A stretch of 61,915 nucleotides of DNA, the filler included, from Hausera hauseri (Eukaryota), in assembly GCA_046269625.1 (NCBI GenBank). It is 11 parts of 11 records of this genome, joined end to end, with 100 filler letters (N's around TTAATTAATTAA, not from the genome) between each part and the next. Parts side by side here need not be neighbours in the genome. Positions count along the whole stretch, not along the records: positions 25,777 to 32,200 come from JBJURY010102098.1; 10 more parts are not named here. The stretch is one strand, 5' to 3'. Under the pieces are notes generated by a model. The model was not told the origin of the DNA. It saw nothing but the letters and a program-made list of their open reading frames with translations, and ran no database searches. A program made the position numbers and the translations under genes. Shown one piece after another: positions 5,589 through 36,683 of the stretch. How positions within the stretch are numbered: position 1 is the first letter of the stretch; each line of letters opens with the position of its first letter.

Positions 5589-6122
5589 TCCTTTAACCCG
5601 TTTAACCGATCTTCCGTTTATCTTCTTATTTACTTCTCCTACTTTGTTCCACCCTATTTTGATCTTTTTCTTTAGATTCATATACCTTCTCTTTTCTCCG
5701 TCCTCTTCTATTTGCTGACCTTCGACATTGTCCGAATCCTCCTGATTTCTTTCTCCCGATTTTCTAATTTTTGTTACCTCGTGATGATTGTTCTCAAACA
5801 CTTTATTACCTTCTTTCAATGTTTTATTATCACTTCTCTTGTCCTTTATAACACAAACAGACGTTTTTTCTTTGTCCTTTTCACCATTTTTCATAAACCA
5901 GAGCTTTAATTGCTCTAGAAGCATCATCGGTGCCTCGCCTTCAAGGTTGTTTATTTTCCATGTATGATTTTCCACTACAACATTTATGGGCTTAGCACAG
6001 ATCCTTGCTCAATACATACAATAGCGGAGGGACATAAAGCCGACGTCGAGGAGAAAAACATGAAAGATTCGAAAGACCATTACATTGCATGGTTTGTTCC
6101 TGCGGATCACGGTACAGAGCAC

Positions 6123-6141
6123 AAACCACGCTCTGCTACCA
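6123..6141 (-). promoter_or_regulatory. Primer-binding site complementary to initiator tRNA-Met
   Basis: Minus strand TGGTAGCAGAGCGTGGTTT, complement of tRNAi-Met 3' end (...CTCTGCTACCA), upstream of gag. Confidence 0.85.
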
Positions 6142-6146
6142 ACAAA

Positions 6147-7460: not shown

Positions 7461-7474
7461 TTTCCCCCCTCCTT
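7461..7474 (-). promoter_or_regulatory. Polypurine tract
   Basis: Minus strand AAGGAGGGGGGAAA followed directly by TG, just downstream of the integrase/DUF5641 end. Confidence 0.75.
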
Positions 7475-10400
7475 GGGACAATCCAGCTCACAGATATTTC
7501 TTCTGCGGTTTCAATCCAATTTAATTCACTTTCTATTTTACATAATTTATGCACTGGCCTCTTGTAGGTTTCCTCGTCTAATTTTATCTCCACCACCCTT
7601 ACTCTCGTTGTGTATCCCATGGAATACCTTTGTTATTTCTGCCACCGGCCAATGATTTAGCTTTTCATTTTTCTCTAGCAACCATACTTTGTCTCCAATT
7701 TTCAGGTCTATCTTTTCTCCTTTTATCCTCTCATAACTTCGCCATTCAGATAGAAGTTCACTTCTCCATCGATACCAATATTCATTTACTAACCTCTGTA
7801 TAAATCTCCATCTATCTGCTAAACTGCTACTCCTTGTTCCGGTTATCTCCGAAGAGATTTCCCCATTGTGCCCGGCTATTATAAAGTGGTTCGGAGATAG
7901 GATGACATCATTTTTACTATCATCAACAACTCTCAATAGCGGCCTGCTATTTGTAATTCCTTCAATCTCTATCAGTAATGTTTCCAATTCCTCATCTGTC
8001 AATGAACCATCTGGGAGTAATTTACTTAAGGAACTCTTTACAGACTTGATATCACTTCATAGACTCCTCCGAAGTGAGGTCCTGCAGGGAGATTAAATAT
8101 CCACCTTATTTCGGTGTCCTTGAGCTCGCTCCTCAGACTACATGTGTTTATTTTAAATTCGTACTCCTCTCTATTTATTCCAATAAATGTTCCCCCGTTG
8201 TCGGAAACTATCAACGAAGGCCTTCCTCTCCGACTTATAAAACGTTTAAGTGCTTTTAGAAAGGAATTGGCATCCAATCCGGCTAACACTTCGATGTGTA
8301 CTCCACGTCAAAGTAAACATATGATTAGACATATGTACCTTTTTTCATGTGCTAACCCTCGTCTTTGTCGAGTTTTCACTGGTCCTGCGAAGTCAATCCC
8401 GACTTTATTGCAAGCTTTCAGTGGTAATTGAGTCCTGAACGTCCGCAGCGGCGCTCCTATGGCTCGTATGCCTTTTGCATTTGCTCTCCTACAGATCCTA
8501 CAATAGTTTTGATAGGCTTTGACCAACTTCTTCATCTTGGGAAACCAACACCTACTGCTTAACTCCGCAACTTGATGATTGACTTCCGCGGCGTGTCGTA
8601 AACTCAAATGTGTATCCTCGATAATTAGTTTTGTTACGATGCTCTTTGAAGACAGTATTATTAGATATTTTTGTTCCCAATTCAACCAACAGGTTGTTAT
8701 TAGACGACTACCGGATATCAGTATTCCTTCATCGTCTAAAACAGGGTTAGATTTTGCGATAACACTCTTATAGTTAATCTCCTTTGTAGACCTCAAATCT
8801 CATCTATGTACAAAATTCCTTTTCTTGGTCTTCCTTGATTATTTCCAATTTTGCCTTCTTTCTCAGTTGTACTTCACTTAAGTTATTGGTTTCACCTCTT
8901 AATGTAATTTCCCTTACCTTTTGTTTAATCACCTCCTCCCAACGGGACTCTGCACTTTGTTTAATGTTAATCGTACCATCCTGATTCTGTTGCTCTCCCT
9001 CTGTTGTATCATTCCCGAGAGTCATCAGTGTTAATGTATCCTTTCGCCTTTCCTCATCTTTCGGTTTCGTTAATTCTCTAGGTTAAACCGGCCATTGGTC
9101 TTTCGTCTTTCTTAGAAATTCTGGACTGTTCCACCACTCTATTTTTTCTCGTAGCTCCTCTATATCTAGTCTTCTAGAAAGATAGTCCGCTGGGTTGTGT
9201 TCCGATTTTACGTATTTCCATTGTTCAACGGTCGTTTCTTCTTGTGTAAAACCCACTCTGTTAGCCACGAATGTTTTGTAATACTTGCTGCAGCCTTTTA
9301 TCCAATATAATACGTTCATGCTGTCCGTCCAGTACTGCATATCTTCCTTCTTGTTCTCCAATGTCTTTCTTACTTTTCTCCCCAGCTTAACTCCTACACA
9401 GGCCGCCATCAATTATAACCTCGGTATGGCGACGGACTTTACCGGTGTCACCTTACCTTTCGAGCATACAATCACTACTTTAATTTTTCCTTTTACTATC
9501 GATCTTAAATAAGCGATCGCTCCGTAACCCCATCTCGAGATGTCGCAGAAAATATGTATTTTACTATCTCACCTTGGAAGTATAAATATCTTGGCACCTT
9601 TATTGTACTCAAGTTCTCCATCCCTTTTACCCATGTCCTTATTTTCTCGCTCAATTCCTCGGGAATCTTCTCACCACAATCCACATTCATGATCCACAGT
9701 TGCTGCCGAAACATATTTTCCAACAGTGTGTAACAACTGAGGAAGCCCAGCGGATCGAATACTTTCGCTAATGTGCTTAATAATATTCTTTTAGTTACAC
9801 CTGACTATTGATTATTACAATTCTCAAATTCGAATATATCCTCCTCGATCTTCCATTTTATTCCCAACGTTTTGGTAACAGCGTCAACCTTTTCTAATAT
9901 GTTAAATTCCTTAGATCGGTCCTTGATAGGGATAAAATTTGTTAATTCACTAGAATTTGACACCTATTTGTGCGGTTTCATTCCAGCACTTTCCAATATT
10001 TCACATAAATTATAATACAGCGAAAGAGCTTATTTTTCCGTGTTAAATGAGTCGATACAATCATCCATATACGTAGAATTCTTTACTATTTCTACGGTTC
10101 TGGGGAATTTTTTTTTAAATTTTACGGCGTTATATCTTGATGTCAATTGCGCCAAAAATAGAGAGGTGTTAAACCCAAATACCAACCGACTGAACTCATA
10201 CGTTTTGAGCTTCTCATCTTTGTACCAAAGAAATCTCAAATACTTCTTATCCTGTTGTTTCACCTTAATCTGGAGGAACATTTCATGGATGTCGCAAATG
10301 ACAACCCACGGCCGTTTTCTCATCCTTAACATAATATCCACGATATCCAATTGTAACTTAGGGCCAGGATCTAGGAAATCGTTCAGGCATTTTCCTCCAT

Positions 10401-11957
10401 ATTTTGAAGCAGCGTCAAATACTATACGGCATTTTGTGGTATCTCTATCTACCTTCATAACCGTGAAGTGCGGCAGCAACCAAGCTGTCTCTCGTTCTTC
10501 CCATTCTTCCACTACTCGTATGTACCCTTCCTTAGTATGCGTCTCTATCACGCTTTCGTAAGCTGCCTTTACTGTTTCATCCTTATCTAGTTTTTTCTTT
10601 AAGGTTTCCAACCGTTTATGTGCTATCCATTCGTTACTGTCCATCTCTGGTTGTTTTCTTCCTTTCCACGGCAATTGCACGCAGTATCTACTTTCCACGT
10701 AAGTTGTTTCATCTAACATATTTTTTACTATTTCCTTGTCTTGTTCAGACCTCTCAGACTTTTTCACGTCCATATTAAATTGAATCTCCCACAATCGACT
10801 CAAGTCGTCTTGAATTTCTTCTGAACTTGTCCAAAACGCTCTCACAAAATTACTATTTATAATTTTCTTTCCCTTTTTTATTTGTCCTACACAGGTCTAA
10901 CCTAACGAGGTTAATTGCGCCACCGGTGCACCCTTTTACCCGTTTACTTCTTTGATTGACCTGTGTAATTATATAAAATTCGCCCCTATAATCCCATTCA
11001 CTTCCGACCTGGGTGACCTTTCCGGAAACTTTAAATCCTTTAAGTGTGGCCATTTCTGTCTTTCTATAAACCAATTTACTGCTCTCATTTGCCCCGTTGA
11101 ATTTCTCATAGCCAAAGTTTCGAAATTTACTTCCATTAACTGTTCCATATTTAGTAACATCATTTTAACTCTATCAATGGACATCTTGGTTTGTTTTCCT
11201 CCGACGACTGAAATCGTCAACTTCTGTGTCTTCTTACCGACACCCAATTCTTCACATAGCATTGTGTCTACGAAGCTCTCGGTGCTAGCATCGTCCAATA
11301 ACGTTATTGCCTTTTACATTTTTTTCCCATTCTTTAACCATACTTTCACTGTTCTTAACGCCACCATTTCTTCCTGCTCATATGTATTCTAGGAACCTGG
11401 GGTAACATAGGTCCTAACATCCCTATGTTTACTTTTTTCTTCTTTCTGTTTTTTAATTTTTATCGGTCGTGATACTTTTTCCTCTTTCTTCTTGCCGAAT
11501 ATGTTCTCACAAGCTTTTTCAGTCTCTTGCTTTACCTCTTTCTTGTCATAACTGCCTTTACTCTTCCCTTTGCTACCAAATTTTTTGTGCAGAAACTTAC
11601 AGTTATCTCCGTACCTACATTCTCCATTCTCGAAATACCAACACACTCTTCTTTGATCGTCCTTACTTGTTTGATGTAAATATTTGCAATTCTCTCCGAA
11701 TTTGCACTGACCGTTTTTATCAAAACTCCAACACCTCTGGGACCGATCTTCTGTTTGCATCTTGGATTGGTTAGATTGCATTTCTTTTTGATCTTTCCTT
11801 TTATTATTCATACTCCCACTCTATTTACAACTGGTGATCTCTTCGTGAAATACGATCTTCCGTCCCCTATCAATGTATATCGGCCGTCTTGACTTGTATT
11901 GAAAACTTCGATTCCTTTTACCCTCTCTATAGTGTTCCTCCTGACCATCGCTTCTAT
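7475..11957 (-). mobile_element. BEL/Pao retrotransposon gag(3')-pol, degenerate
   Basis: Protease LLDDASTESF; RT KCRIVFDAAS, DIHEMFLQI, YMDD; RNase H/A17 YWTDSMNVLYWI, NPAD; integrase CRIC, GIDFAGP, RFISRRGRP, SDNGGTF, GPHFGG; DUF5641-like LSPNHF/RWRFIQ; many stops and frameshifts. Confidence 0.93.
11587..11733 (-). other. Two CCCH zinc fingers at the Gag C-terminus
   Basis: CWSFDKNGQCKFGENCKYLH (C-x8-C-x5-C-x3-H) and CWYFENGECRYGDNCKFLH (C-x7-C-x5-C-x3-H), just upstream of the protease. Confidence 0.85.
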
Positions 11958-18194: not shown

Positions 18195-18790
18195 TTTCCT
18201 GAATTTCCTGACTTTTTATTGGCTTAACTTTGAATTAACTTTGAATTGAATTTAAACCTTAATATCCGTTTCAATTCCTCCTCACATCCCCATCCTTTAA
18301 GAATTTTCGCAGTTTCTCCACATTTCTTTCCAGGATTCTGCCGTTCGCGTGTTACAGTACATATCGTCGGTCGTGTTTTCTCTCGATGACTTCGTATGTA
18401 TGGTCCGTATGAATAATATCCAGAAAATCAGCTACATATTTCTCATTTAGATTCAGGAGATTTTTTGACCGAAATGGCTTAACCAAATTTGTAATATTTT
18501 CAATGTAAAACACGACGATTTGCTCATTAGAATAAACATTGGGACGCATATTCCGTATTGCTGTAAGAGACGGATGCTTGAAATCAGGGTTCAGACTATA
18601 GACTTTCCAAATAAAACATGGAAATACACTTCATTTCGAAAAATCTTCTTTTGAAATTTTAATAAAAATTTCGTCAAATGTCTGCGTTAAAATTGTATTC
18701 AATGAAAAGATAAACAAAATTTCGAAAATTTGATCAACCTGTTTGTCAGGTGAATTGGCACCAAAATGACCAAAAGTAAACCAATCTATA
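18195..18790 (-). pseudogene. Unidentified host-like coding fragment (fragment X) fused 3' of the DCAF7 fragment
   Basis: ORFs 18631-18909 and 18352-18549 share a frame, separated by a stop. Confidence 0.4.
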
Positions 18791-19367
18791 TTTAGGATTT
18801 TCCATGGCTCTTGGCATGTTCGTGATGTCCCAAATGAGGGCTTGACATTCTTCGGCTCCACTGCACAAATGGCAGCTGGAGTGTCGAATCCATGCAATGC
18901 CATACACACAACCGCGGTGATTGTTCAAACGTGCTACCGGAGTACAAGGAATTCGAATGGCGAGTACAATTATCTCCGGAGAATTTAACGTAAACGTAGC
19001 TAAGTAATTTGCACCTTGTTTATTCCACGATTTTACCGGATCTTCGTATATAATCGTTGAATGTTCAAGATGACTTAGGTCAAACACTCTAATAGATGCC
19101 TCGGCTCCAACACTTGCAAAACATCCCGACCACCCTGAGCCTTGGTGAATAAAATATCATAAACTTCTTTGTCGTGAGCGATCAACTGTGTTTTCACATT
19201 ACCTGTCACTTGTGTAGGCCGTCACATCATTTATTCTAATGAAAAAATCGTCGTGTTTTTCATTGAGAATATTACAAATTTGGTTAAGTCATTTCGGTCA
19301 AAAATTCTCCTGAATATAATTGAGAAATATGTGGTTGATTTTTTGGATATTATTCACACGGACCATA
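18399..19367. repeat. 138-bp inverted duplication (18399-18536 vs 19230-19367), roughly 90% identical
   Basis: tttattctaatga...attacaaatttggttaag...gaccata at 19230-19367 is the reverse complement of 18399-18536. Confidence 0.9.
18795..19225 (-). pseudogene. DCAF7: DCAF7/WDR68 internal fragment
   Basis: VKTQLIAHDKEVYDI, FDLSHLEHSTIIYEDP, PCTPVARLNNHR, HSSCHLC, ALIWDITNMPRAMENP; frameshift, small deletion, no introns. Confidence 0.92.
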
Positions 19368-19369
19368 TT

Positions 19370-19435
19370 TGGTGTCAGAAGTGGGATTCGAACCCACGCC
19401 CCCAGTCGGGGACCAGAACTTGACTCTGGTGCCTT
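19370..19435 (-). tRNA. 5'-truncated retrocopy of mature tRNA-Leu(CAA), including 3' CCA
   Basis: AAGGCACCAGAGTCAAGTTCTGGTCCCCGACTGGGGGCGTGGGTTCGAATCCCACTTCTGACACCA: anticodon stem CCAGA/TCTGG with CAA, long variable arm, T arm, CCA. Confidence 0.9.
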
Positions 19436-22400
19436 TGTAATGATGGTGCTAGAATTATTACGGAATGGCCTGGTTTGGAGGTGTCTAAAGCCACGCCGTC
19501 ATCGATTGTGCAAGATTTGAAAGAATTAAGCATGTCCTGTGGTGGCTGGTTCTGTTGTAGTTGATCTTGCGTAAAGATCGGTGAAAAATTAATCGAACTA
19601 ACCGACCTAGATAAAAAATCATCGACCAGATTGTTAACCCCGTTAATGTGTTTAATTTCGAAGTTAAATGTCGATAAGTATGATATTTGCCGTTTTTGGC
19701 GTGTGAAAAGGTGTTTCATAGCCATGATGTTAAGTATGGGCTTGTGCTCAGTTTATATGGTAAAATGACGAGTGACAAGTAGGTGGGAGAAATGCTTTAA
19801 AGCGAGAATGATGGTCAATACTTCTCGATCGAACGTGGAATATTTGGTTTCCGGTGCTGTTAGCTTGAGAAAACTTCTAATGGTTGATTTTCTCCCTTGT
19901 AAATTTGGTTGAGTACAGCGCCTACTGCAGTGGTTGACGCGTTTGTAGTAAGGATGAGTTCTGCATCGGGCTTGGGCAAAGCTAGAATATCGACGGTCTT
20001 AATTCCTTCGCGTAGCTTGTCAAATTTGTCAACCAATTCAGGTGTCCACTGGATTGGCTGATGCTTTTTGTCGCCGCTTAGGTGTGCGAATAGTGCTGTT
20101 AATTCGGAGAAATATAGTACATATTTATGTAAAAAGTGTAGCGTGCCAAGGAATCTGCTCATTTCGGTTGTTGTACGCCAAAACTGGATGTTTTTGAGAG
20201 CTTCGACTGGTCTGATTGTGGAGAATGACCGTCTGGTAAAGTAACGTGGCCTAAAAAGTTGATGCGCTTTTTGAAGAAATGGCATTTATCGAAATTGACT
20301 TGGAGATGATAATGGCTAAGGCTTTGGAATGTTGCGCGAAAGTGTTCCTTGTGTTGTTTGGCCGAAGACGAAATGATCAGAATATCATCAGTGTAAGGGT
20401 GCGCAATCAGGAAATGTGAAAGAATTAAATCAATGTGCCGCTGAAAAGTTTGTGCGGCATTCCGCAAACCGAATGGCATAAAGAGGTAATCGTAGAGACC
20501 AAAAGGAGTAGTGACAGCTGTTTTTTCTATGTCTTTGGGTACCACCAGTATTTGATGGTATGCTTAACTAAATCAATGGCTGAATAGATGGTGGTTGAAT
20601 TAAGACGATGCAAGATATCCTTGATGAGTGGTAAAGTGTACGCATCCATGATTGTCAAGTTGTTCAGCTGTCGGTAGTTACCGCATGGTCTAAAAGTACC
20701 GTTCTTTTTTGTACAACGTGTAAAGGTGATGACCAAGGAGATTTGAAACGGCGTACTCTGCCAGAACGTCATAGTTCAAGGAATTCGGCTTCTATGGCCT
20801 ATCTACGACGAGGTGACAGAGGTCGTACCTTTTGGCGTGTTGATCGTTGATGCTCTGTAACTATATGGTGTAAGGTACTGTTTTCGGGAGTAAAAGTACG
20901 GTCTTTTTTAAGTACTCATAAACATGATGTGTGGACTAATTGCTGTAAAGTTGTAGGTAACTGTGAGAGATTTGGTGGAAGTGGTGAAACGACTTTAGTA
21001 GTAGCGGATGCAATTTGTTAGTTGTTAGCTGATGCGCAGTGAAGTGGTATTTGGTGTAAGATGATCAAATTGGAAATGGTGTTGGATGAAGTATTTTCGT
21101 CGAATGAATTAAGGCTGGTGGCAGTATCTCATTTATGGACATCGAACCTTGATCATATATCAATTTTATTATTTAAAAATTTACGAATAGAGTTATTATT
21201 ATGAAATTGGAATTATTTATTGACTTTTTTAAGATTGAACTCCGCGTTCCGGTCGACTGCGCGGTAGTCGAAATGCTATTGACATGTCCAGAAATGTCGC
21301 CAGTGGTGTCGTTCCTCAAACATCGTTGACTGCACTCAACCAGTAAATTATGGTGTGAGAGAATGTCGGATCCTAGAATTGCCGTCTGGACGTTAGCGAC
21401 TGTGAACGTCCAGTGGAAAAGTGAAGGAAAATTTGGTAAAGTGAAAGATAATTTAGCCATGCCAGAAATGTGCAGCGGGTGTCCTGAAGCAGTGTATTAG
21501 AGCTTGATTTTGAATGGAGAATTTTGTACAGGAAAGGTTTGTGGTAATAAAGAAATCGCTGCACCTGTATCAATGAGGCAGTCAACGGATTGTGTTGTAG
21601 GAGCAGTGATTGAAGCTTTTATTGTAAAGACAGCAAGAGACGTGTCGGCGTTCAGAAAGTGAAGTAGTGACTTTGCCAGAGTTTGGCGTGACTTCTAGCG
21701 GCGAACTTAGTTTTTTTGGAAGGATGAACTAGGACGACTATTAGAAGGAAAGGCAGTACGTCCGTCGTTCTTATTTGATTTGAATGTGCAGCCTGGAATG
21801 CATTTACGAGCCTGATTTTTGAACCTTGCATGGTAGATGCAAACAACGGTGTCCGAGGAAAAACTCTTGTTATAAAATTTGCATCCTAGGCAGCATTTCT
21901 GAGCATTAGTGTTAAATCTGCTGTGGTAGTACCAGATCGACTAACCCGCAGGCGATGGTGAGCGGTTTCTAGACGCTGAACGAACGCGGCCAGCGGCAAG
22001 ATCCCCTCGGCGGGATAGATACAATTCGTTTAATTTATTATTAATATTGTTGATTGTTGCATGATGTGCAATATTTTCAGCACGTAGCTGATTAAACTGT
22101 TGTTCTGTGGATGTATTATCGTTAGCGGCAACTGCTGCTGAAACAACTGGTGGAGAATTTACGTGTAGGACGTCGTGTGTCCTATCGGCTAATTCGGCCA
22201 ATTTCTCAAGCGGCGTGGAGTCCTCCACCACGGTAAGTAGGGCCCGGATTTGGATAGGTACCGCATTGAGGAATTAGTGGCGCAGTAGTTCTGGGTTGTG
22301 TTCCTTAGTGACGCCGAGAGTATGTAGATGTGCTAAAGAGGTGCGTAAGAATTCTGATAGTCGTTGGGTGCCTATAACATTGTCGTGGAAGAAACGTTGT

Positions 22401-24695
22401 ATGATCGTTTCCATGGAAGGTTCTGTGACCTTGAGAACTGCGTTAGAAAGTTGGGAATATGGGTCTGGAAGTTCGAAGATTTCGATGATGTTGTGAATGG
22501 AGATTTTGATGTTATTAGGGAGTAAGAGAAGGTTGTGTGCCTTAGTTAAAGTCGGTAATGTTGTTTCCCTGCAGCCATAGTTGGTGTGGTGCCCGCGTCG
22601 ATCGTCGCCCTCCGGTCCATTGGATTGGGCACGGTCGGGTCTTCCGCTACCGGCGTGCCGGGCACATAGGCAGGTCCCGATTTTCTGCCTTAAAAACGGA
22701 AATAAATCAAATATTGCCATATCTCTTCATTATTATTAAACGCTGTATTTCGCTTCTGGTATGTGGAGTACATCAGAGTCTCTCATCCTAATAAATCCAG
22801 AGAATGGAATTTATTTATTGGAATTATTTTGTTTACGTTTATTTGTAATGCATCTTCTATTTTGACTTTGTTTTTAATATTTTTTCGACATTTATTTATT
22901 TCAATTCCTTTATTATTATTATTATTTTATTTCAGTTTCGGTATTTCTTTTTTATATTTTAGTAGTAATATTGTCTTTTATTTTTTGTTAATGTTTAATA
23001 TCTTTAGGGTTACGTACGTTGGTTTATTTAGTAATATTTGTCTTTTGCAATTTTATTGATGATTCACAGTCACTAATGGTGCTTATCTGATAGAGAACTT
23101 CAAAACGCGGATTTTAATGAAATTATTTTTGCCATTATTCAGAAATTTGATAGTTTTTTAAATTTTGATACAATTAAATTTTAGTATAATGTTATGCAAT
23201 GTCTCGTTGAAGGAACTTTTCTAGAAGAGAGGATTAAAGGGGCAGCTTTCAAAATTATGACAAATTATTTACGCTGGACATCTTGGGTTCAACCAGTATT
23301 CATCATGACGCTGCCGTTTCTACTCCATCACATCGCCGTCAAGCTGCTCTATACTACCTATGCAGTCGCTATATTTAGCTCATTTCTCACTGCGCTCCAT
23401 GAAATTCCCCGGTGGGTTTTTTCCCACGTTGCCGTGTAACTCATCATCAATCCTACTCGCAGATGTTGAACCGGCATGCATGGTCAGCATGTGGCATCAG
23501 TTACTGTTTACGTCGGCCATCATTCAATTCATGATGCCTGTCAGCACAGCAGCAATCCACATGGTTATTCGACTGCATGAATTCATAACGTACGACAATA
23601 CGGCTACTGAAATTCCCAAACAACGTCAAGATCACGGATATTATCAGCAATTTCTCCACGTGTTGAACTTGTTACATGCACACCGTTTTGCTAACTTTGT
23701 GGTTTATCTGCATTTGTCACTGCCATCTATTGGATACACATGTACTGATAGTGATCTGACTGTTCAAGGATATCTAGTACTGATACAGTTGCCATTTGAT
23801 ATTGGTTCCATTGTGGAATGAGGATATTGGCTGACAGTATTCCTGCTGTTTTTGTTTAAGTATTGTAAATAAAAAAACAGATTGTAAAGCACTAAATAAA
23901 TTGATTTTGTTTCGCCCATTTTAATTTTGGAGTTTGCCTTGTATTTTATCCTACATTCATTACTTGTTCGAATTTTATCACATCGATACTGGAATTTTGT
24001 TAATTTTAAATTTTCATTCGTATTTATCTGGAATTGATACATTTTAGTATTCATCGTTTAAAAAACTTAATAATCATCATCTTAGTATTTTGAAATTTTT
24101 TATTCGTTTGTCTCTATTTTGGAATAAATACTTTTGGTCTGTGAAAAATAACATTTGGTGAAATTGCAACCAAGTTTTGCTGGAGTCTTGGTTGTCATTG
24201 AAGAATTCGGTGCAGTTAGGGAATGGAGCTGCAGAGGTAATGGATGGGAGATTGCTAGCAGGGGTAGGAATGGGTTTTTGAAGTAATATGACGGATTTCG
24301 GTTTCGTGGTGGTTTTATCCGTTGTGTCTATGGTTGGCGAAGAATTCATGCCACCACGGATACGGAGATGTATGTGGAGGCAAGTGTAGCTTGAGAATGA
24401 TGGTAGGGTTCCGGTGAGAGGTATTATAGCACCGTTATGGGTGAGATAAAATTCGGAAGAGTTAAGTAAGAAAGAAATGACTGTACGAAGGGTTGCAATA
24501 TATAAATGTGGTGCAATGAGTGTGTAAATGTGTATTATTGAGGAAAAAATAGAGGGGAAGTAGTATGCCTGAGGGCGTGGTGTGAAGCCGACGCGAAAGG
24601 CGCCGTCTGACCGAGCGGCGCAGGGTTGACGGTCGGGACCCCTGTCTCGGCGCAGCGGACCCCAAATTGCAGGGTGACCGAATCTCCCCTCAAAA
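19436..24695 (-). mobile_element. Gypsy (CsRn1-like, CHCC Gag) retrotransposon, degenerate; integrase lost; gag interrupted; no 5' LTR
   Basis: gag MNSSPTIDTTDK (24349), resumed at ~22562; protease LIDTG/ILGSDIL; RT FRPCGNYRQLN, KTAVTTPFGLYDY..MPFGLRNAAQTFQR, YTDD; RNase H TTNASTTAVGAVL, HINGVNNLVDDFLSR. Confidence 0.9.
22563..24140. other. ~1.6-kb composite insertion within gag (GC-rich piece, AT-rich piece, unidentified plus-strand coding fragment ~23194-23860)
   Basis: Gag before (KTWLQFHQMLF) and after (NITD..LLLPNNIKISI) the insert is contiguous in the related copy at 30213-30560. Confidence 0.65.
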
Positions 24696-25100
24696 GTGCA
24701 GCCATGTCTTCAGCGTGTTTGAATCGACCAGATTCAATCATGTGTTTGATGCAAAGACAATTAATGTATCGATCCGCTGTGTCCATTGATTTACGCACGT
24801 CCAAACGCTTACTGGCCAAATACCAATTCCCAGCATCGTAATAAATACGACCTTTCAGTGCATAGAAGTCAATCAGAGTCGGTGTGTGATACAGCTGGTT
24901 TTCAACGAGCTCTAAGGCATCCGAAACTCGACCTATATGACTATAGTGTTGTGCCAACAGATAATTAACAAATATTTCGTTCGTCGACGGTTCGATCTCA
25001 GCATCAACACCTCCCAATGTCTGATATTCGTAAATGTTAAGTTTGTATGTTTCGTAGAGTATCCTTAGAATATCGACCTTTTCCATATGTAATGTTAGTG
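24696..25100 (-). pseudogene. NAA15: NAA15/NAA16 (NatA auxiliary subunit) internal TPR fragment
   Basis: YLLAQHYSHIG, HTPTLIDFYALKGRIY..AGN, MDTADRYINCLCIKHM. Confidence 0.9.
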
Positions 25101-25214
25101 CGCGAATGAATTTTAATTTAAATTAATTTAATACAACTGGGTTTTGAAATAAAGCCATAATGAGGTCGTATTGAAAGGTAAAATGATTAAAAAGGTAAAA
25201 TTATTATCGCCAAC

Positions 25215-25480
25215 GATAAAATTACCGAGCTGTTTACGCCATGACGGTGCATCGCCAAATTGCAGTACAAAATAACTGCGGACCACTTGCTTCTCACATC
25301 CAGTAAACAACAATCCGCCCTCCGGAAAATGCAGCAGATAGCCAATCTCGGTATTGGTATTGTAAGGGAACCGAATTTTTTCCTCTTTGTTTTCAATCGA
25401 TTTCCATATTTTGAAAATACTCCCAACTAACGCAAGCACTTGGTCATTGTGAAAAATGATATTTATGGCGAAACGTACCC
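25215..25480 (-). pseudogene. NOL10: NOL10/Enp2 internal fragment
   Basis: FPEGGLLFTGCE..RSYFVLQFGDAPSWRKQLGN resembles NOL10 YPNSGMLLTANE..YYIPVLGPAPRWCSFLDN. Confidence 0.7.
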
Positions 25481-25676
25481 TATACAATAAAGCAACATAA
25501 TACGCATCTGGAACAATTAGAGCGTAATTTCTCAACAATTGCACCGAACTGTTACCCGGCATAACCATTAGTGCTGGATTGTTGAATGTACAAATATAAG
25601 AAAAGAAATCGATAGTATCTTTAAGGACTTTGAAAACGTCGCATGTGTTCTGTCAAGAGTTCGAATAATTATCGAT

Positions 25677-25776
25677 NNNNNNNNNNNNNNNNNNNNNNNN
25701 NNNNNNNNNNNNNNNNNNNNTTAATTAATTAANNNNNNNNNNNNNNNNNNNNNNNNNNNNNNNNNNNNNNNNNNNN
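25677..25776. other. Artificial contig spacer
   Basis: 44N+TTAATTAATTAA+44N. Confidence 0.97.
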
Positions 25777-27320
25777 TACTGTTCTTGCTTGGATGAAATC
25801 AAAGGAATTATTTATGAATTCTCCAGATAAATTACTAAAACGACAATGGTGTCAGAAGATTTTGAAAATGCCAGAAGCAGCTATTGATAATCAAAATAAT
25901 GAGATGCTTAATTCCGTAAGAGACGTTTAAAGCATCTGAAATTTGGACAAAGCTTGTGAAGGCAAATCAGAATTCGAATATTGACATTGATAAACTGATA
26001 AAAGATAGTGTTCATTACGGTATCGAAATTGGAATGTTTCATCAAACCAAAGATGGGAGTATGTGTAATGACGGTAAGAAGAAGACAAAATATGAAAATA
26101 AAAAAGATCGTCAGATGAAAATAAAAATTTACCAAATGAATCTCACGTGATGCATACACGATCAATTTCTAGATCTGAATCGGATATTCAATCATCAATA
26201 ACGAGTACTGCGTAATCATCATCTAAACGATCTTCCGTAAAGAAAATTAAACGACCTCCTGAGTTAGTTCCCCTAAGAGAACCAAAGCGTTTACGATCGG
26301 ATTCACCAAACAAGATATCCGAGCCGCGCTTATCTGAGCAAAAGTTAGTCAAAATTCCAAAACCCAAACCGTAAAACAGAAAAATGTGCGTATTGCTTGG
26401 CAGATGAAACGTTCAATAAAACGACAAACGTACATGAAAATATGATAACATGTTGGAATTGTGGCACTTGTGGTCATCCGAATTGTCTTCAATTGCCGAA
26501 AAAGTTATTGGAAAAAGTACGAACCATACGACGGCAGTGTCTAAAATGTAAATGTTGTTCGTATTATGGTACCACTATCAAAAAGGACGATAACATGTTC
26601 TTATGTGATTTTTGTGATCTGGGTTTTCATACTTACTGTTGTGATCCGCCTGTCAAAAATCCTCCTAAGGGTGAGTGGATTTGTAGAATTTGTAGAGCAG
26701 TACATGGTATTAAATCTCAGCCAACTGTATTTAATAATGACAATTTCGATTTCAAACCAGATTGTCAAATTGTAACACCAGAAAGTGTGAAATCTATTTA
26801 TGGCATTCCTAATAAACCCGTCCAGCAAACGTTAGAAAAACCGGTGAAATCAGTAAAATTAAATTTAAGGGTTTTAAAAAATCCTTTAAAAAATATGAAT
26901 CTCCTGTACTTAAAACGGAAAAAACTTGTTGGTAAAGCAGTTCAGCGTCAAAAAGCAGCATTGACTGACGGGTTAACACAATTTTTCACTCCATCAAATA
27001 AGAGACAATCGAGAGTGTCTAAGCAAACTTTATCTGAAAGATCTATTAACGTTGGGGCAAGAAATGGAATGGTAAACGAGTTTTCTAAGGGAAATATCAA
27101 AAAGCAACCTCTTGAACTAAACACTTTAATGCATATGGATTCAAATGAATCTTATTAGAATGTTTCAGATATATCAAATCCGTTAAACTTTCATGCTCCG
27201 AATAAAACTTTTGCCGCAATTTTTCTTTACTTTCCTCCAGTTGCAGAAGAAAGGAAAGAGATGATTTTCAAGAAAAGTCGTAAGAAACGTCTATCTAATA
27301 AATGTGACAATTCGAAAGTG
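25777..27320 (+). pseudogene. KAT6A: KAT6A/B (MOZ/MORF/enok) N-terminal fragment with double PHD finger; no MYST domain
   Basis: CAYCL..CWNCGTCGHPNCL..QCLKCKCC..DNMFLCDFCDLGFHTYCCDPP..PPKGEWICRIC and DGLTQFFTPS; stops and frameshifts. Confidence 0.8.
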
Positions 27321-27329
27321 ATGCCAACG

Positions 27330-29100
27330 AAATTGTATTAAGAAACATATTGTTCATTTATGAGGAATCTTGTGTGGTCGTATTTGAAACCGAATTACGA
27401 TTTTGTGTGCCTTATGTTGCAGCGTTACTCCAATAAATGGCTATTTGAACATGTAAAAGTTCTACCTACTGAAATAGCAAGTGGCGTAAATTGTGACAAT
27501 TTGCCATTCATGGAGGAGAACGCTTATATTTGCCAAATATTTGGTTTATTGACGGCTACTATCTACAAAACAACAATGTTTTTCAAGATTGAGGCAGTAG
27601 AAGGACTGACAGATAAATTGATCGAAGTCTCATGGAAGAAATTACCATCTGATAATTGCCATCTACCTCGTATTATACTTTGTAACCAATCAACAATCGA
27701 GGGTAAGGTCATTCGGTTGTTGCACCATACCGCAGGCAACGTCAGTTTAGTTGGTGACGATCCTGATGAAACCCGTTTAATATCAGAGAAACATACAGTC
27801 TATGTATGCACCGTAGTAAAATTGTTGACCATCGCATATCCCTTCACTTGCAGCATATCTGGAAAGAACACAAGTAGTTCTACTGACGATGGTCAAGTGA
27901 AGATATTCCAGATACGTATCAGCATTCTGTTCAGTGAATTGGAGACCGTTGTTGTTCAGGTGGTCGATCTTAATTCCAATCGAACATTTGCCATGAACAT
28001 GCTCGCCGAAGTGCTCAGTCTGTTCAGAAATCCTGTTCATCGATTTCCTGTTCATATTACAGCCATGATTCAGTTGGCCGAGGAATTATTGCAGGGATTC
28101 ACTAGTCATACATCGATTGCTCCTAATTATAACCCATGGAACCTACAGAATTACGTCGTCGCAGATATTTCGAAATCGTATAGATTTCAAGCAACAACTA
28201 GATGATGTATTATTGTTTAATTGCTTTGAACAGCCGGTAAAGGCCGTCGTATTTCTATAACATCTGATCATGAGCCCGAACACCGAACTCGACCGAAAAC
28301 AGATTAATCATAATGGTGTCACATTTGGCCTAGAGATTTTTCTTCTGTCTCAGTACGCACATTAGTTCACAAAGTGTGAAATATCCACTGTACAAGGAAA
28401 TGATAACGAGAATTTTGGATTCTGTGGGATCAAGATTCATGATTCTGGCTCCCCATCAGACCAAACGTCTTTTGGATGGAATGCTGCAGAATGATCCACT
28501 GGTGGAGTTCTTTGTGTCTTATTTTTGTCCCAATGTCGACAAGTCTGACACTCCAGTTATGTATTCCGATGTTTGTTTGGTTCATCAGTCTGGTCGATAT
28601 TCGACACCTACTATCATGACTATTTTTAGCAAGTTTAATATGATGCAATTCATCGATAATTCACCGACTACATCAACTATGGCAGTCATTATTGAATCCA
28701 TCTTCACGGAGTTATCTACAGCTAAGCCTAACAAAACCAAAACAGGGAAAACCGAGGACAGTATTGAACCGATGCATGCGGAAAAGTTGTTCACGATTGT
28801 CTCAAACATTCTCAATGTCTGTTTACCTACTGCGTTAACACGATTTAGGGCAGATTGTGCCAGATCTGTTCTGCAACCCAGATTTTGGGCAGTGGCAATT
28901 CTGCGTCAATGACATCAGTGTGGCACATGGTGAGTTGCCGCTAACAATAGACGAGATACGAATGAAACTGGGCGCATTCGGTCAATGGACCAATTAGTTC
29001 CGTTTTGGCGATGTTGCATACCAGAAATCATGGGCCATCTACGGTCTTTATGGACACTTCTACATTACTCGTTGGAGAAACTGGTACACGGTGAGGTAGG
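27330..29100 (+). pseudogene. Large helical protein fragment, probably EPG5 C-terminal region
   Basis: ORFs 27360-28205, 28376-28912 and 28985-; motifs VSWKKLP, VEFFVSYFCP, FSKFNMMQF recall EPG5; identification by eye only. Confidence 0.4.
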
Positions 29101-29197
29101 AATTGTAATTGTGTACGAATCGTTCGGCAATCGTCTTTTTAGTATGCCTTTTATTCCTAATTTTTATTTCTTGTATTTGTCATTTTTCGTCAATAAC

Positions 29198-29926
29198 ATG
29201 TCTGATAATGACAGTAATCTTAAAATAGCCGAAGAAGTAGATAATATTCAATGTTTAGAAGGAACCTATTGGTATGATGAAAGAGATTGATTGAAAGAAG
29301 AAAGTTTCATTTCCAGCTTATAGCGATATAGTGTCAGATTATTTTGAAACAAAAGATATTGGGCCGAAAAGCATTTTTATTCTTCAGAAGAATTAATATT
29401 AGGATATAAAAAGGCATTTGAACATTAAAATATCAAACCAATCCCGATTTTACTTGAACAACTTAAAGATATTGGTGTAGAAGTTTGCCACGAACTATAC
29501 GACATGCTGAATTTATCAGATGTCAAATTAGAAGTTAAACACGTCGAGTGTCTTAAGGAAATCTTTAAACGTGTTCAATTTACAACGTTAAATTTCGAAA
29601 ATTGTGGTTTAAACGGCGAATTGTCAACAGCGTTGTTTGAGATCGTTGAATATTACGAGTCTTGTACTTATCTTATTCTGTTTTTGAATCCAAATATTTC
29701 ATATTCCGGATTTACCGTGTACGCCAAAATGCTCATAAAAGCACCATGTCTTGAAATAATAGAATGTAATGGTATCATGTTCACTGGCACAACATCACTT
29801 CCTTTAAACCGAGCCGTCAGATGTGTTTGTAACTTAAAGTCCCTATACTTAGAGAATTCACATGTTTGTGTACATAATCCACTAATACTTTTATCTTCCC
29901 TGAAATTAATTCTTCATCCTAGAGAT
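29198..29926 (+). pseudogene. PPP1R37: PPP1R37 (LRRC68) 5' fragment
   Basis: KVSF PP1-docking motif; IPILLEQL; ECLKEIFKRVQF; ALFEIVEYYESCTYL; LYLENS; several frameshifts; truncated at the Gypsy junction. Confidence 0.88.
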
Positions 29927-31745
29927 TTTGGAGGGGATTCGGTCACCTGGATTTTCAGGTACATCACAGTGTGACCAACTTCCAGGCCGTCTGTCCTATA
30001 TCTTTCTCCTAAATAATTACCAACTATTTGGACACAGAACGACGTATTTTATAGACGCATCTTACTTGCACAATTATGTACTACACTTCGCTAATATCTC
30101 TGACTTTTACCTCACAACAACCGACCTGTAATTGATGTCAATTTTCGTAACCCTTTCTGTTCCTTCAACCTAATATATCATTATTCACGTACACATTTAT
30201 ATCCGTGGTTGCATGGATTCTTCTCCCACCATTGACACTACTGATAAAACTAACTCTAAACCAACACCCTTCGCTTTTCTCCAAAAATCAACGACCGTCA
30301 CCGCACCATCCACTTTCCCCACTTATGCACCTATCCTCCCTCCAGCCAAACATACTTCGCAGTGCACAGATTACTCTATTGACCATGAAAAGTCCAGCAA
30401 AACATGGCTTAACTTTCACAAACTTTTGCTGCAGTCTCACAGTATTACTGATCTCTCAGCCAAAACTCAGCTTACTTTACCTCTTACCAGACACAGTAAA
30501 GACTTCTCTTTACGATATTTTAGACATATTTTAACAATCCGATCCGTACACCCATCTCTATAATACAGTTTTAAAACTCACGGAACTGTTTATGGATTCC
30601 ATAATCCATAGATTCTTCAATGATAGCGCTATTGGTACACAAAAACCATCCGATTTTCTCACAACCTCTCGTTCAACTGCAAACACTCGTCGTTACAAAA
30701 CAAAATAATTCCGATCTCTTACGACGATACTTTCTAAACGCATTACCGATTCAGATCAGGGTCCTGCTTACCGTCGTCGAGGAATCGACAGCGCTAGATA
30801 AGTTAGCCGAACTTGCAGACAAAACGTACGAGATTTTACATCTTAACACAACCTATCACTTTCGCAGCGCTTACAGCAAACGACAACGCATTAGAATATC
30901 AAATTCAACAGTTGCACGTCGAAAACGCAGCTCTACATAATACAATAAACCATATCAACGATAGATTAAATAAAGTCTCTATGACTCCACGAAAGGATTC
31001 CGCCTCCGATCGCACACGCTCTGTACCCAGAGGTCGGTCACCTTCTGCGCGATCGCTGATCTGTTTTTACCATGATAGGTTTGCTCATAAAGCACAAAAA
31101 GGTCATTTCGGGTGCCGCTTTTACACGCAAAAGTATCAAATTAACAACGCTATTTGCATTTACCACGTAAAGTTTAAGAATGATGCACATAAGTGTATCC
31201 CTGGTTGTACTTTTAGAAGCAACACTCAACATACGAATGTAGGACGTTTTCCCTTACCTTCTAGGTCCATCGCCAGAGCTTACGGCGAATCCTGGCGAAG
31301 GCCATTCTCCAATTTCTACTAGCCGAAAACTTTCGCCGTATTTACAGTAAAAGCAGTAACTACGTTACCAACAACTCGCCACATAGACTTCCTTATCGAT
31401 TCAGGTGTAGCGATTTCTTTACTGCCGCTTACCTTTCCAACTCAACACACTTCATCCAAATATAAACTTCTATTTACAGCTTTCGGACAACCGTTACACG
31501 TTTCCGGTACATGCAGGCTTTCATTTACTCTTCCGACATTTACTTCAATGTTTCACTGGACGTTTACCGTTGCAAACGTCCAGACAGCTATTTTAGGATC
31601 CGACTTTCTGTCGCATTATAATCTCCTTGTCGGTTGCAAACAACGTTGCTTAACAAGTGGTTGCAATAAAGAGCCATTCAATCATGTCGATACCATTTCG
31701 TCTGTCGTGCAGGTGAATGCAAGTCAAAAATCGATATTAAAAAAC
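29927..31745 (+). mobile_element. Gypsy (CsRn1-like) leader-gag-protease, related to the 19436-24695 copy; no 5' LTR; truncated before RT
   Basis: MDSSPTIDTTDK, LRRYFLNALPIQIR, LDKLAELAD, two CHCC-type motifs, FLIDSG, WTFTVANVQTAILGSDFL. Confidence 0.88.
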
Positions 31746-32200
31746 CGTTGAACAAACCATTTTTTACAATCATAGTAAAGAAGACTTTGCTCGGCCAAGT
31801 CGGAGGATCGAAATCCTGGAATTCACCTACTTTGTTTTCGCTCATAATTGAAATAAGTCCAGAGTTTTTTAAGTACTGATTTATCCAATATTTAAACAAA
31901 TTAAAAATAAATAATAATTTGCTTCAAAATATGAAAATTCTTTAGGAGCAACATTCAATGATATATTATTAAACAAAATAAAGTCTTTTAGAGGACAATA
32001 ATGTTGCGAGTTGTTTCGTACTGATATTTCGATCTTGCTAAGACCTTCTTCAGAGTATGGCTATTTTGGTGTTAGTCTTCGTGAATGAGTCTATTTCTTT
32101 TGTTCTTTTTCTTTTTCTTTATTTTTATTGGTTCCTCAAAACAGTATGCTGTTTATATCGCCGATTTCTTGTTTGATGTTCAGTTGGGGTTTGGATCTTC

Positions 32201-33272: not shown

Positions 33273-35246
33273 TTACACTCTTTGGACAGTCAGATTTGGG
33301 TATATTGATCCAATGTCTCTATACTCTATTCGGATGTCTTTTGTTGGTAACTCTCCCTTCTCTGCTTGGTCATATTTCTTGGTTTCTTTGTGTTTGTTAT
33401 AAAATTCTTCAATTCGCTTCCACCATTTAAATTTCTTGCTAAGCCCTATGACAATTCCACATACTATGATCGCTGCTACTATAATCATGCCACTAATGGT
33501 CGTCTTGTTGTTTCTGTCATCCACTTCTTTGATTGCTTGGAACTGTTCCAATTCATTGAGCATCTCGTTATAATCTATCTTGTCCATTGCTTTCAGATGA
33601 GTCAGAGGTTTTCCAAACGCAAACTTCATATTCTTTACTGCCGTCTCTGCTTCTGAATTCTTCCACTGTTGTCCATTAATGTCGATGTTCAATGTATTAG
33701 CCTTCGATGTCCCGACATTTATTCTCGAGTCAAACATCTGTGGTTCCGTAATAACCATTTCATTCGAGTATAAGGAGCATCCTGTTTCCAGTTCGAGTAA
33801 TTCAAGTTTCTTCGTTAGATGTACTGTTTCTGTTTTCAGTTTTCCTTCGCGTTCACATAGCTTTTGTGCTTTCAATTCTGTTTTAGTGACTATCGCCCAT
33901 GTGTCTCTACCTATCTTTGTTGCCTGTGGTGTTTGTGTTCTTTTGACTAGTTCTTTTCGACAAAGTTTCGCAGCTCTTTCTCCGTTATTTTCATACATAT
34001 TTAATATACACGATTCTGCTTGCTTAGTTGTGTACATTGGTTGTGTTACTTCGCAATACTCAGTAATCGCTTTACGACATTTGCTAAATTCTTCCTGCTG
34101 TAAGATCGTAAACATAGTGCTTGCTTTATTAATTAGTAGTGCTTTTCCTTCTGGAACGTTTCTAACGTAATAATGTTGCCATAACTCGTTCTGGTTATTT
34201 CCGTCTTCTTCATTTACCCTTCCAATGCTGGTTACTTCATATAGTTCATATTCTTCGTTGATGTCGACCAGTGGTATATTCATTGTCATTATAAGCTGAC
34301 CTCTGTTGACATATGTTTCCGTTTCTAACTGTTCATAATAGTCGATCAAATGTTCATCTATGTTGATCGGCATTCGAAGATTTGGTGGGATGTTTCTTTG
34401 AATGCTTTCTAGAATCACTCTTAATTCTGTTGGATTCATTGCATTGACGTTCAATCTCTTTAAGGTTGTGAGGCTTATAATGTCTTCGATGTTATTTGCA
34501 ATTCTTTCAGTTCTTCTCACTAATTCTCTGCATCTACCTTCAAGTGACACCAACATTCCTAGCGTGTTTATTCTAACTTCGAGTTCCTTAGTTATATTCT
34601 CTACGTTGCTTTCCATTTCTTGCATATAATTTTCAATTCTATTTATATGTGTGGCATATTCGTTAATTTTTCTTCTATTTTCACCTATTTCTCTGTTGGA
34701 TATGTTAATTGCTGATATACTGCGTTCTACTACATGTTTCATAATTTCAAGGTTGCCGTTGATTATGTGGACGCTTTGCTTTATATTTTGTACTTCGTCA
34801 TCTTTTGCTGTGCCAAATAGGGTATCTAGGATGTCTCCTATAAACGGTAGTATTGCTCGCTTCTCTCTACTCCTATTAATCCAATTCAATCTCTCCTTTA
34901 TGCTCCTAATTTCGTCTTGCCATTGTCTTACTTCTTTCTCTAGCTCTAACATCATACTTTGGAAATGTGTGGCATTTGTCGTCTTTTGAATTCTATTGCT
35001 TGCGTATACTCTTGCATGTAGCAATCTTCTAGCTCTTCCTAGTTTCTCTTCTACGTCTAATATTTGTCTTTGAAAATTCGTTAGTGACTGTGTAATCACT
35101 AATTTCCAATGGGCTTTAACTTGGTGGATTTCTTTAACTTTTACGAATACCGTACCTTCATGTTGGAAGATTTCCTCCCTAGCTTGTGTCGAAATGACAA
35201 TTATCCAGCTTGTAATGACGGTCATCAACCGATGAGAATTCGTCAT
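33273..35246 (-). CDS. env: Intact class I viral fusion protein (errantivirus Env / baculovirus F-like), 657 aa
   Basis: Signal peptide; furin site RSREKR followed by fusion peptide AILPFIGDILDTLFGTA; heptad repeats; Cys-rich ectodomain; TM ISGMIIVAAIIVCGIVIGL; cytoplasmic tail. Confidence 0.88.
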   Translation of the reverse strand: MTNSHRLMTVITSWIIVISTQAREEIFQHEGTVFVKVKEIHQVKAHWKLVITQSLTNFQRQILDVEEKLGRARRLLHARVYASNRIQKTTNATHFQSMMLELEKEVRQWQDEIRSIKERLNWINRSREKRAILPFIGDILDTLFGTAKDDEVQNIKQSVHIINGNLEIMKHVVERSISAINISNREIGENRRKINEYATHINRIENYMQEMESNVENITKELEVRINTLGMLVSLEGRCRELVRRTERIANNIEDIISLTTLKRLNVNAMNPTELRVILESIQRNIPPNLRMPINIDEHLIDYYEQLETETYVNRGQLIMTMNIPLVDINEEYELYEVTSIGRVNEEDGNNQNELWQHYYVRNVPEGKALLINKASTMFTILQQEEFSKCRKAITEYCEVTQPMYTTKQAESCILNMYENNGERAAKLCRKELVKRTQTPQATKIGRDTWAIVTKTELKAQKLCEREGKLKTETVHLTKKLELLELETGCSLYSNEMVITEPQMFDSRINVGTSKANTLNIDINGQQWKNSEAETAVKNMKFAFGKPLTHLKAMDKIDYNEMLNELEQFQAIKEVDDRNNKTTISGMIIVAAIIVCGIVIGLSKKFKWWKRIEEFYNKHKETKKYDQAEKGELPTKDIRIEYRDIGSIYPNLTVQRV

Positions 35247-35279
35247 TTTCTGTGGAATTATACATTCCTATCATTACTG

Positions 35280-36458
35280 TTATGCTAATTTTAACATAGT
35301 TTGCATAAACAACTTCATCATACTTTCTGCTTTGTCTACCCCTGCCATTTGCTCGGGTTGCCCTTTCCTCAGTGACTTATCTTCTACTTCCCCGTTTTCT
35401 GTTTCTTCATCTTCTTTTTGGCTCTGACTGATATGTTTTTTGTGTTTCGTCCTTTCCTTCATGGCATCACTTGGGGACTCTTTTTGTCTGACTACTTCCG
35501 TCAACTGCTTCCTCAGCTTTGTTATGGTCTCCGTCTTTTCTGCGTTTTCTTCTTCGAGTTTCGCCACCTGGTTCTCCATCTCTCGTGTTATTTCTTCTTT
35601 TTCTTGCATCTTACTTTGAAATTCATTAACTTCTAGCTCCACTTTTCGTTTGGCCTCGATTACTCTCTCCACCATGTCTCGTATATCGCTCATTTCTTTG
35701 TCTTTCTTAGCTATTGTCGTACGTATTTCTGCCATATTTGCTTCTACTTGATTTCGTTCTCTTTCTTGTTTCTTTCTTACCTCTTCAGCTCTTTTCTTAT
35801 ACATCCTTCGTAGTGCTGCTTCCCTCTTGATTTTCGCTAGCGGTTCATCTTCGGTGGATGTACCCGAATCTCGGAGTCTTTTTAGTCTCTTGACCATCTG
35901 ATCTAATTCCGATGTTTCTGTTTCCGTATCTTCTACCAATGTGTCCGAACTACCATCATCCGGTGGCTTGTAGTCTTCTGGTTCGCCTTGCGTTTCTTCA
36001 TCGTCTCCTTCGGCTTCTTGTTGATGACTTCTACTTCTAATTACCTTGCTCATATTTCTATTTATTTTCTGTTTCTGGCTTCTAGCATGCTGCTCCTTTG
36101 CTGTGTTCATGCTACTCTGTAGTTTGCTGATTTGGCGTTGCATACTTCTAATAATGGCGTCTTGTCTACTGATTATTTCTTTGACTTCATTGCCCTTAGC
36201 TCGTTTATTCTTGTCTCTATGTTTCTTTCCAGGTCTTCTTCTCTGTTGTCTTCTGAACATCTCACAAGCTCCAATGACGCATGATTGCTCCTGTGACATG
36301 CCTTTTTGATTGCCCTCAGAGTATGTTTTCTTAACTTCGACTACTTGTCCGCAATGTCTACATCTGTTCAGATGAATGGCGAGGACTTGTTTTGGTTTCT
36401 GATTGTTGCTCTCACTAGATCTTCTTAGTCTGTCATGTTCCTTCGGAGAGAAGCTCAA
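35280..36458 (-). CDS. Accessory ORF upstream of env (Cys pairs, basic patch, long coiled coil)
   Basis: 392-aa open frame ending 33 nt before the env ATG; CRHC and CVIGAC; RRQQRRRPGKK; E/K/R-rich heptads; true start uncertain. Confidence 0.6.
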   Translation of the reverse strand: MSFSPKEHDRLRRSSESNNQKPKQVLAIHLNRCRHCGQVVEVKKTYSEGNQKGMSQEQSCVIGACEMFRRQQRRRPGKKHRDKNKRAKGNEVKEIISRQDAIIRSMQRQISKLQSSMNTAKEQHARSQKQKINRNMSKVIRSRSHQQEAEGDDEETQGEPEDYKPPDDGSSDTLVEDTETETSELDQMVKRLKRLRDSGTSTEDEPLAKIKREAALRRMYKKRAEEVRKKQERERNQVEANMAEIRTTIAKKDKEMSDIRDMVERVIEAKRKVELEVNEFQSKMQEKEEITREMENQVAKLEEENAEKTETITKLRKQLTEVVRQKESPSDAMKERTKHKKHISQSQKEDEETENGEVEDKSLRKGQPEQMAGVDKAESMMKLFMQTMLKLA

Positions 36459-36583
36459 GAAGCCGGGATTTCTGGGACGGGATTGTTGTCTTCTGGGATA
36501 TGGGTAGTGGGTGTTAACTGCCTTCTCGTATTTGGGAATGGGTGGGATTTGACTTTGGGGTTCTTTTCTTGTCTCTCGTACCT

Positions 36584-36683
36584 NNNNNNNNNNNNNNNNN
36601 NNNNNNNNNNNNNNNNNNNNNNNNNNNTTAATTAATTAANNNNNNNNNNNNNNNNNNNNNNNNNNNNNNNNNNNNNNNNNNNN
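36584..36683. other. Artificial contig spacer
   Basis: 44N+TTAATTAATTAA+44N. Confidence 0.97.

Follow-up and report, generated by a model that had tools for sequence, protein, structure and literature searches.

Host-like coding pieces at a fixed 5' joint of two decayed CsRn1-type Gypsy elements in Hausera hauseri

How does a chain of host-like coding pieces come to stand directly in front of the leader and gag gene of a Gypsy-type retrotransposon? The question is raised by contig JBJURY010102098.1 of Hausera hauseri (assembly GCA_046269625.1), which occupies positions 25777-32200 of the window, i.e. the whole stretch of DNA analysed here, 61,915 nucleotides (nt) long and composed of 11 contigs with N-linkers between them. 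In the first 4.2 kb of this contig, 4.15 kb of decayed host-like coding pieces, all on the plus strand, precede a short motif, which is followed by the element (copy 1). A second motif copy lies on the minus strand of the neighbouring contig, at 24695 (copy 2), and is preceded by a different host piece. The joint is fixed in 2 of 2 copies, each with different cargo in the same polarity; both elements share the Gag type of one clade, and both copies are decayed. It is probable, if only slightly so, that reverse transcriptase (RT), at a fixed 5' anchor, abandoned the element RNA and then switched serially onto host RNAs.

The chain and copy 1 comprise the following features; the 5' end of the chain (25777) is the contig edge.

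25777-25858, plus strand: contig start, 70 nt of no assigned identity and a 12-nt stretch (25847-25858); may be chance coding sequence
25860-27158, plus strand: decayed gene piece of the DPF/KAT6 double-PHD type (Pfam, homologue alignment; related contigs at about 91%)
27159-27341, plus strand: joint 1, 183 nt, with a depth peak and an acceptor-like pyrimidine run plus CAG
27342-28830, plus strand: decayed coding piece in two long frames (27342-28205 and 28334-28912), presumably EPG5-like
about 28830-29145 (edges approximate), plus strand: multi-copy piece of no assigned identity (by depth; no match in the searches made)
29146-29928, plus strand: T-rich stretch resembling a 5' untranslated region, ATG at 29198 and the decayed 5' part of a leucine-rich repeat (LRR) gene, cut at the motif
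29926-29957, plus strand: anchor motif, copy 1 (22-nt motif at 29926-29947; similarity to copy 2 over about 30 nt)
29948-30212, plus strand: 5' leader, 265 nt, with a candidate short long-terminal-repeat (LTR) end, ACA, at 29966-29968
30213-31751, plus strand: broken CsRn1-type gag and protease, the rest of pol absent (66-77% nt identity to copy 2)
31760-32200, no strand given: unrelated repeat of very high copy number (by depth), truncating copy 1 near 31760

On the neighbouring contig, copy 2 and its surroundings read as follows.

25131-25652, minus strand: 174-codon frame upstream of the NAA15 piece, no search match
24691-25107, minus strand: piece of NAA15 (residues 329-468 of the human protein) abutting the motif on its upstream side (Pfam PF12569, E 1.5e-29)
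24673-24695, minus strand: motif copy 2 (pattern search)
19436-24672, minus strand: leader, gag, protease, RT, RNase H and start of the integrase region; broken
19370-19435, minus strand: tRNA-Leu(CAA)-like sequence, 3' two-thirds only, with terminal CCA, joined to the broken end of the copy 2 integrase region

A reading made from the sequence alone (the sequence-only reading) had described same-strand gene fragments running into the motif, the leader and gag, which is borne out by the frames, the leader length and the gag start. It had also called for a search for further motif copies; in the window, this yielded copy 2 with its different 5' host piece. The motif consists of a T-run, a G-rich purine tract of 7 and 8 nt in the two copies, and an 11-nt core (29937-29947), which is the best conserved part (11 of 11 nt). 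A search of the window with the motif pattern gives two occurrences; 100 shuffles give none. No match was found in viral contigs. Two matches in metagenome contigs are GC-rich, show no similarity to the window and were taken as chance, as was a 9-nt motif core at 28976 (five occurrences in the window, two of them inside other coding frames).

Two independent routes place the end of host similarity at the motif T-run. For copy 1, Logan record 4 (773 nt) matches 29447-29928 at about 85%, with 69 differing and 13 gap letters, leaves the window at 29928 and continues with 304 letters unlike it; the LRR piece does break off at the motif, as the sequence-only reading had held. For copy 2, the NAA15 alignment stops in codon 24693-24691, inside the T-run. 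The two copies resemble each other only from the motif onwards: the sequences upstream of it align with a score of 28, while shuffles reach up to 30 (11 of 200 score as high). Sequencing depth changes from 20-65 over most of the cargo to about 700-2,200 from leader to protease, which means that the family is large and that this cargo is rare among its copies.

An assembly chimera of repeats and gene fragments might produce such a picture, given short contigs, a repeat-rich genome, a single sequencing run and a first internal joint (joint 1) that lies in none of the Logan records covered (8 of 4035 pieces and 6 of 449 loose ends, all from run X1). The motif joint, however, is bridged without differences by record 5, an independently assembled contig (386 nt, 29706-30091), the second internal joint is contained in record 3 (about 88%), depth is present in 30 of 30 bins, and the motif joint recurs on another contig with other cargo. 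An artefact is therefore highly improbable. The sequence-only reading had asked for long reads across the junctions; Logan contigs support the motif joint but not joint 1.

Both elements carry hallmarks of the CsRn1 clade of Ty3/gypsy, to which PwRn1 and AgCR belong. In copy 1, gag opens with an ATG at 30213 and encodes a CX2HX9CX3C knuckle (31155); the DSG motif of the protease lies near 31398. In copy 2, the gag ATG is at 24349 and the same knuckle at 21841, followed by an RT domain (RVT_1, E 2e-18) and RT_RNaseH; the leader end, gag and protease are homologous to those of copy 1 (66-77% nt identity). The knuckle and the DSG/DTG protease are shared with the clade, and so is the order protease-RT-RNase H-integrase, which is seen in copy 2 only, as copy 1 stops after the protease (PMC2582038). 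What differs from the clade as portrayed there is that the tRNA-Trp priming site and a TGT...ACA LTR are not found before the leader, where the host pieces stand instead. The best tRNA-Trp site scores 8 of 12 in both copies, which is equalled in 881 of 2000 and 1522 of 2000 shuffles. Among the repeats shown in the window there is no LTR-like pair, in agreement with the sequence-only reading; copy 1 is cut near 31760, so a pair could not show. The truncating repeat reaches a depth of 23,000-100,000, with 67 loose ends at 31774. Neither paired LTRs nor a 4-base-pair (bp) target duplication were seen, both elements being without their own 3' end. Viral contigs contain no loci related to the protease or integrase. 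The gag of copy 2 additionally holds an insertion of about 1.5 kb of no assigned identity (22560-24130, minus strand).

The cargo itself is identified to different degrees. The NAA15 piece aligns with NAA15 in the PDB over 139 residues with one 1-residue gap (E 5e-23). In the chain of copy 1, a pair of PHD fingers (26382-26699; Pfam PHD, E 6.5e-12) fits DPF2 (E 2.8e-30) and KAT6A (E 6.8e-28) about equally; the sequence-only reading had named KAT6, a preference over DPF that we can only take as presumed, and searches aimed at distinguishing the two gave nothing. A gene of the double-PHD type thus stands, but the two other names proposed there lack search support. For the frames at 27342-28830, which are presumably EPG5-like, no Pfam family, PDB match or homologue was obtained in the searches made. 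The LRR-like frame (29429-29928, behind the ATG at 29198, with four stops in the ATG frame) presumably derives from a PPP1R37-like gene; its best match is a designed LRR protein (E 0.065), no homologue was found, and its single-sequence predicted fold has a mean predicted local distance difference test (pLDDT) score of 36. Word-based searches with the chain pieces returned no homologues, and an exhaustive search with a chain piece returned two matches, both repeat-driven and unrelated. Neither the EPG5-like frames nor the multi-copy piece nor the sequence preceding the PHD pair gave a match in the PDB.

Differences from related contigs within the PHD frame alter the residue in 17 of 22 cases and are silent in 5 of 22 (19 from a contig of depth 22.6, three from another; the count is based on 40 of 1024 rows and leaves out five rows upstream of the frame). 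This is the pattern expected without selection. Three differences shift towards residues conserved in DPF2, which indicates that the depth-22.6 contig is closer to a working PHD gene. The chain pieces are now without predicted function.

At the internal joints, the pieces do not follow each other without spacers, as the sequence-only reading had assumed: the 183 nt of joint 1 and the multi-copy piece of about 300 nt lie between them. Joint 1 contains, at 27220-27242, a run of 20 pyrimidines and a CAG. No other acceptor-like site of this kind occurs in the chain, and this one is not above chance (at least one in 226 of 300 shuffles). The multi-copy piece has a depth of 227 at 28898 and 187 at 29030 vs. 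20-65 in most cargo bins, and ends in a donor-like GTGAG (29091) and TTTTTAG (29136-29142); from these signals, 29091-29142 is a possible 52-nt intron. Record 3 spans 28917-29342 at about 88%, with 32 differing and 20 gap letters. A diverged copy accordingly also has the multi-copy piece joined to the LRR start, which would fit either native neighbouring DNA or a unit that was copied again. A Logan joint leading from 25820 to 29068 was also seen; similarity between those two places does not account for it. Within the multi-copy piece, a TG-headed, ACA-ended 9-mer with a tRNA-Trp-site-like 7-mer (28919-28934) was dismissed as indistinguishable from coding chance.

The best sign of RNA templates comes from copy 2. 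In the 66-nt tRNA-like piece, a 5-bp stem flanks the anticodon CAA, the variable arm is long, the T arm matches the tRNA clan (E 0.002) and the last three letters are CCA. Copying of a mature tRNA leaves a templated CCA, whereas the chance of a CCA is 1 in 64. Judged by its sequence, the piece points to RNA as the template. ARAGORN does not call this truncated tRNA-Leu-like piece and called no tRNA gene in the window; Rfam gave 0 gathering hits in the window, nothing credible at 18195-32200 and no ribozyme. At the start of the chain of copy 1, the 12 nt at 25847-25858 are exactly complementary to the 3' terminus of the tRNA-Leu-like piece (19370), against 0.005 such matches expected in the window; the stretch may be a priming site or coding chance.

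Two further loci lie close to the tRNA-like piece. At 18399-19367, 148-nt inverted arms (89% identical) with TA at both ends enclose a WD40 gene piece (Pfam WD40), which we take to be DCAF7-like; the arrangement looks like a gene-carrying DNA transposon inserted beside the tRNA piece. At 18195-18398 (minus strand), an integrase-tail-like frame is followed by a purine tract (18298-18287), a TGT at 18286 and then AATAAA, a possible 3' LTR head, perhaps of another family; compared with the motif and with the third Gypsy element of the window described below, this head gives no match above shuffles.

Under the reading proposed at the outset, the anchor would most likely be the 5' end of the element RNA, i.e. 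the start of a short R-U5. First-strand DNA running off this anchor would land on a host mRNA and not on the 3' end of the element, further jumps onto co-packaged host RNAs would stack more pieces, and the product would integrate with host pieces where the U3 of the LTR would be and could be copied again. The sequence-only reading had already proposed template switching anchored at the priming site. The anchored switching gains from NAA15 meeting the same T-run and from the CCA-ended piece in copy 2; the identity of the anchor as a priming site is not supported. Its statement that the host pieces stand in place of the 5' LTR is indistinguishable from the pieces lying within an LTR that begins beyond the contig edge.

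The priming-site identification rested on a presumed match of about 9 nt of the motif to the 3' end of tRNA-Cys. The tRNA-Cys primer would then have mis-annealed on look-alikes in host mRNAs, and the LTR would have been bypassed. The TGG of copy 1 is suitably placed for this, 287 nt before the gag ATG, but copy 2 has no TGG, the invariant 11-nt core lies outside the match, and a product without the U5 end would lack the integrase site. A literature search for tRNA-Cys-primed Gypsy elements turned up only a tRNA review, and the CsRn1 clade is reported with tRNA-Trp (PMC2582038). We regard this route as very unlikely. The sequence-only reading had further argued from the retained start codon of the LRR piece that RT ran off a 5' end; this argument is not general, as the NAA15 piece is internal (residues 329-468).

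Another view of the same motif is the true 5' end of a miniature LTR element inserted in host-gene sequence. The chain would then have existed beforehand or, in a variant, host-gene transcription would have read through the element, which lacks a promoter, and taken spliced 5' exons with it (5' transduction). In both copies a TG follows the T-run and an ACA with a G-rich stretch lies 40-50 nt further on; the interval is 40 nt in copy 1 (TG at 29929 to ACA at 29968) and about 50 nt in copy 2 (TG at 24692). The match of record 4 ends on 29928, immediately before the TG, and the splice-like signals at the internal joints would suit an origin from DNA or pre-mRNA. CsRn1-like LTRs are of the TGT...ACA type (PMC2582038). 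Against this, chance is unlikely to put two insertions out of two into coding sequence in sense, the fused upstream chain is left unexplained by plain insertion, no significant priming site follows the ACA, and the possible LTR head at 18286 resembles the motif no more than shuffles do. Transduction would call for a set of 5' exons, which the internal NAA15 piece is not. Taken together, insertion or transduction is unlikely.

Polypurine tracts typically have a G-rich stretch of purines, variable in length, behind a T-run, and the T-run and 7- or 8-nt purine tract of the motif have this look. The motif could then be the tract of an upstream element, followed by a tiny 3' LTR held in common with a downstream tandem element; the cargo would be internal to the upstream element, in the manner of Tan et al. 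(2016), and the switch fixed at the tract. Template switching gives rise in cereals to tandem elements with an LTR in common (PMC1950507), and the tRNA-Leu-complementary site at the chain start would be in keeping with such an upstream element. However, neither copy has a TG behind the tract, a tandem would be needed in both, and at most three records cross the ends of the stretch, so its first 70 nt are unlike a high-copy LTR. This arrangement is considered distinctly improbable.

Several observations weigh against anchored switching. The sequence-only reading called the pieces intronless, and indeed no intron-sized insertion occurs in the PHD-pair and NAA15 alignments, but this covers the alignable stretches only. 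The PHD piece may be a single exon, as the depth-22.6 contig also runs 550 nt without interruption. Splice-like signals occur at both internal joints and the multi-copy piece at one of them, while joint 1 remains unbridged in the records covered. The 3' end of copy 1 and the 5' end of the chain are both missing. The absence of a tRNA-Trp site above shuffles belongs here too, as do the leader folds, which are not above shuffles either (z -1.5 and -0.15); a self-priming hairpin was discarded on the latter result. Finally, X1 is the only listed holder of the sequence (share 0.77), with no RNA run among the holders, and may be the source sample. Its bridging contig counts against misassembly, but not as an independent individual.

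The mechanism as such is known already as LTR-mediated retroposition, and the position at the 5' anchor of the element is a variant of it. For metazoans, such retroposition is reported to include multi-gene chimeras of fly LTR elements and, in BLASTOPIA, a fixed switch site (Tan et al. 2016; PMC5131818). Like the cases set out there, the loci described here contain partial gene pieces without poly(A), several parents per chimera and fusion to an LTR element; a family-specific fixed switch site, as in BLASTOPIA, and secondary copying are further likenesses. Unlike there, where cargo replaces internal open reading frames between two LTRs, both copies have their cargo ahead of the leader and gag; an LTR is not seen, with the contig edge upstream. 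In maize Bs1 and Ty1 retrosequences, too, the enzyme of an LTR element has copied cellular RNAs or exonic pieces from several genes (PMC5131818, PMC7175516). Bs1 cargo, in contrast, is flanked on both sides by LTR element sequence, and the passages concerned mention no fixed 5' anchor. A literature search found no host mRNA mosaics at the LTR position, a weak negative as most subscription papers fell outside the search.

LTR elements are known to capture genes in their interior, as a rare accident. A fixed 5' joint with differing cargo would tie capture to a defined step of reverse transcription, either first-strand transfer or priming. It would offer a route to large-scale formation of pseudogenes and chimeric genes in the genome, and it would explain the misreading of such loci by LTR-finding software and gene callers. 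Only tentatively, we raise a further-reaching possibility, namely a CsRn1-type Gypsy lineage in which the LTR is reduced to short fixed ends and first-strand transfer routinely passes through host RNAs. If this were true, the U3 position would be rebuilt, separately in every lineage of copies, from stacked pieces of cellular mRNAs, and the normal cycle of the element would shuffle host exons. Both copies are dead and give no sign of a benefit for host or element.

Other contigs of the window carry further coding and repeat sequences. The contig at 1-4396 (minus strand) contains a 366-residue piece of the HSP70 family that no gap of intron size interrupts and that continues into a different long frame; more specifically, the 5' part is HSP110-like with its start codon (4191) and is fused to a 610-codon helical frame and further frames. 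A BEL/Pao-like element at 4497-11957 (minus strand) has CCCH-type fingers near 11389-11820 and, by eye, a ubiquitin-like stretch in the frame at 5055-6008. The third, more distant Gypsy element (41320-47777, minus strand) has CHCC-like knuckles and lacks the motif; it shows a different priming-site-like start at 46032, with a 315-codon frame upstream. At 33273-36635 (minus strand), an intact-looking 664-codon envelope frame of the baculovirus F type (Pfam E 1.6e-11) sits behind a 433-codon coiled-coil frame on a contig without pol. The contig at 36684-41219 consists entirely of a 4.5-kb degenerate tetranucleotide satellite.

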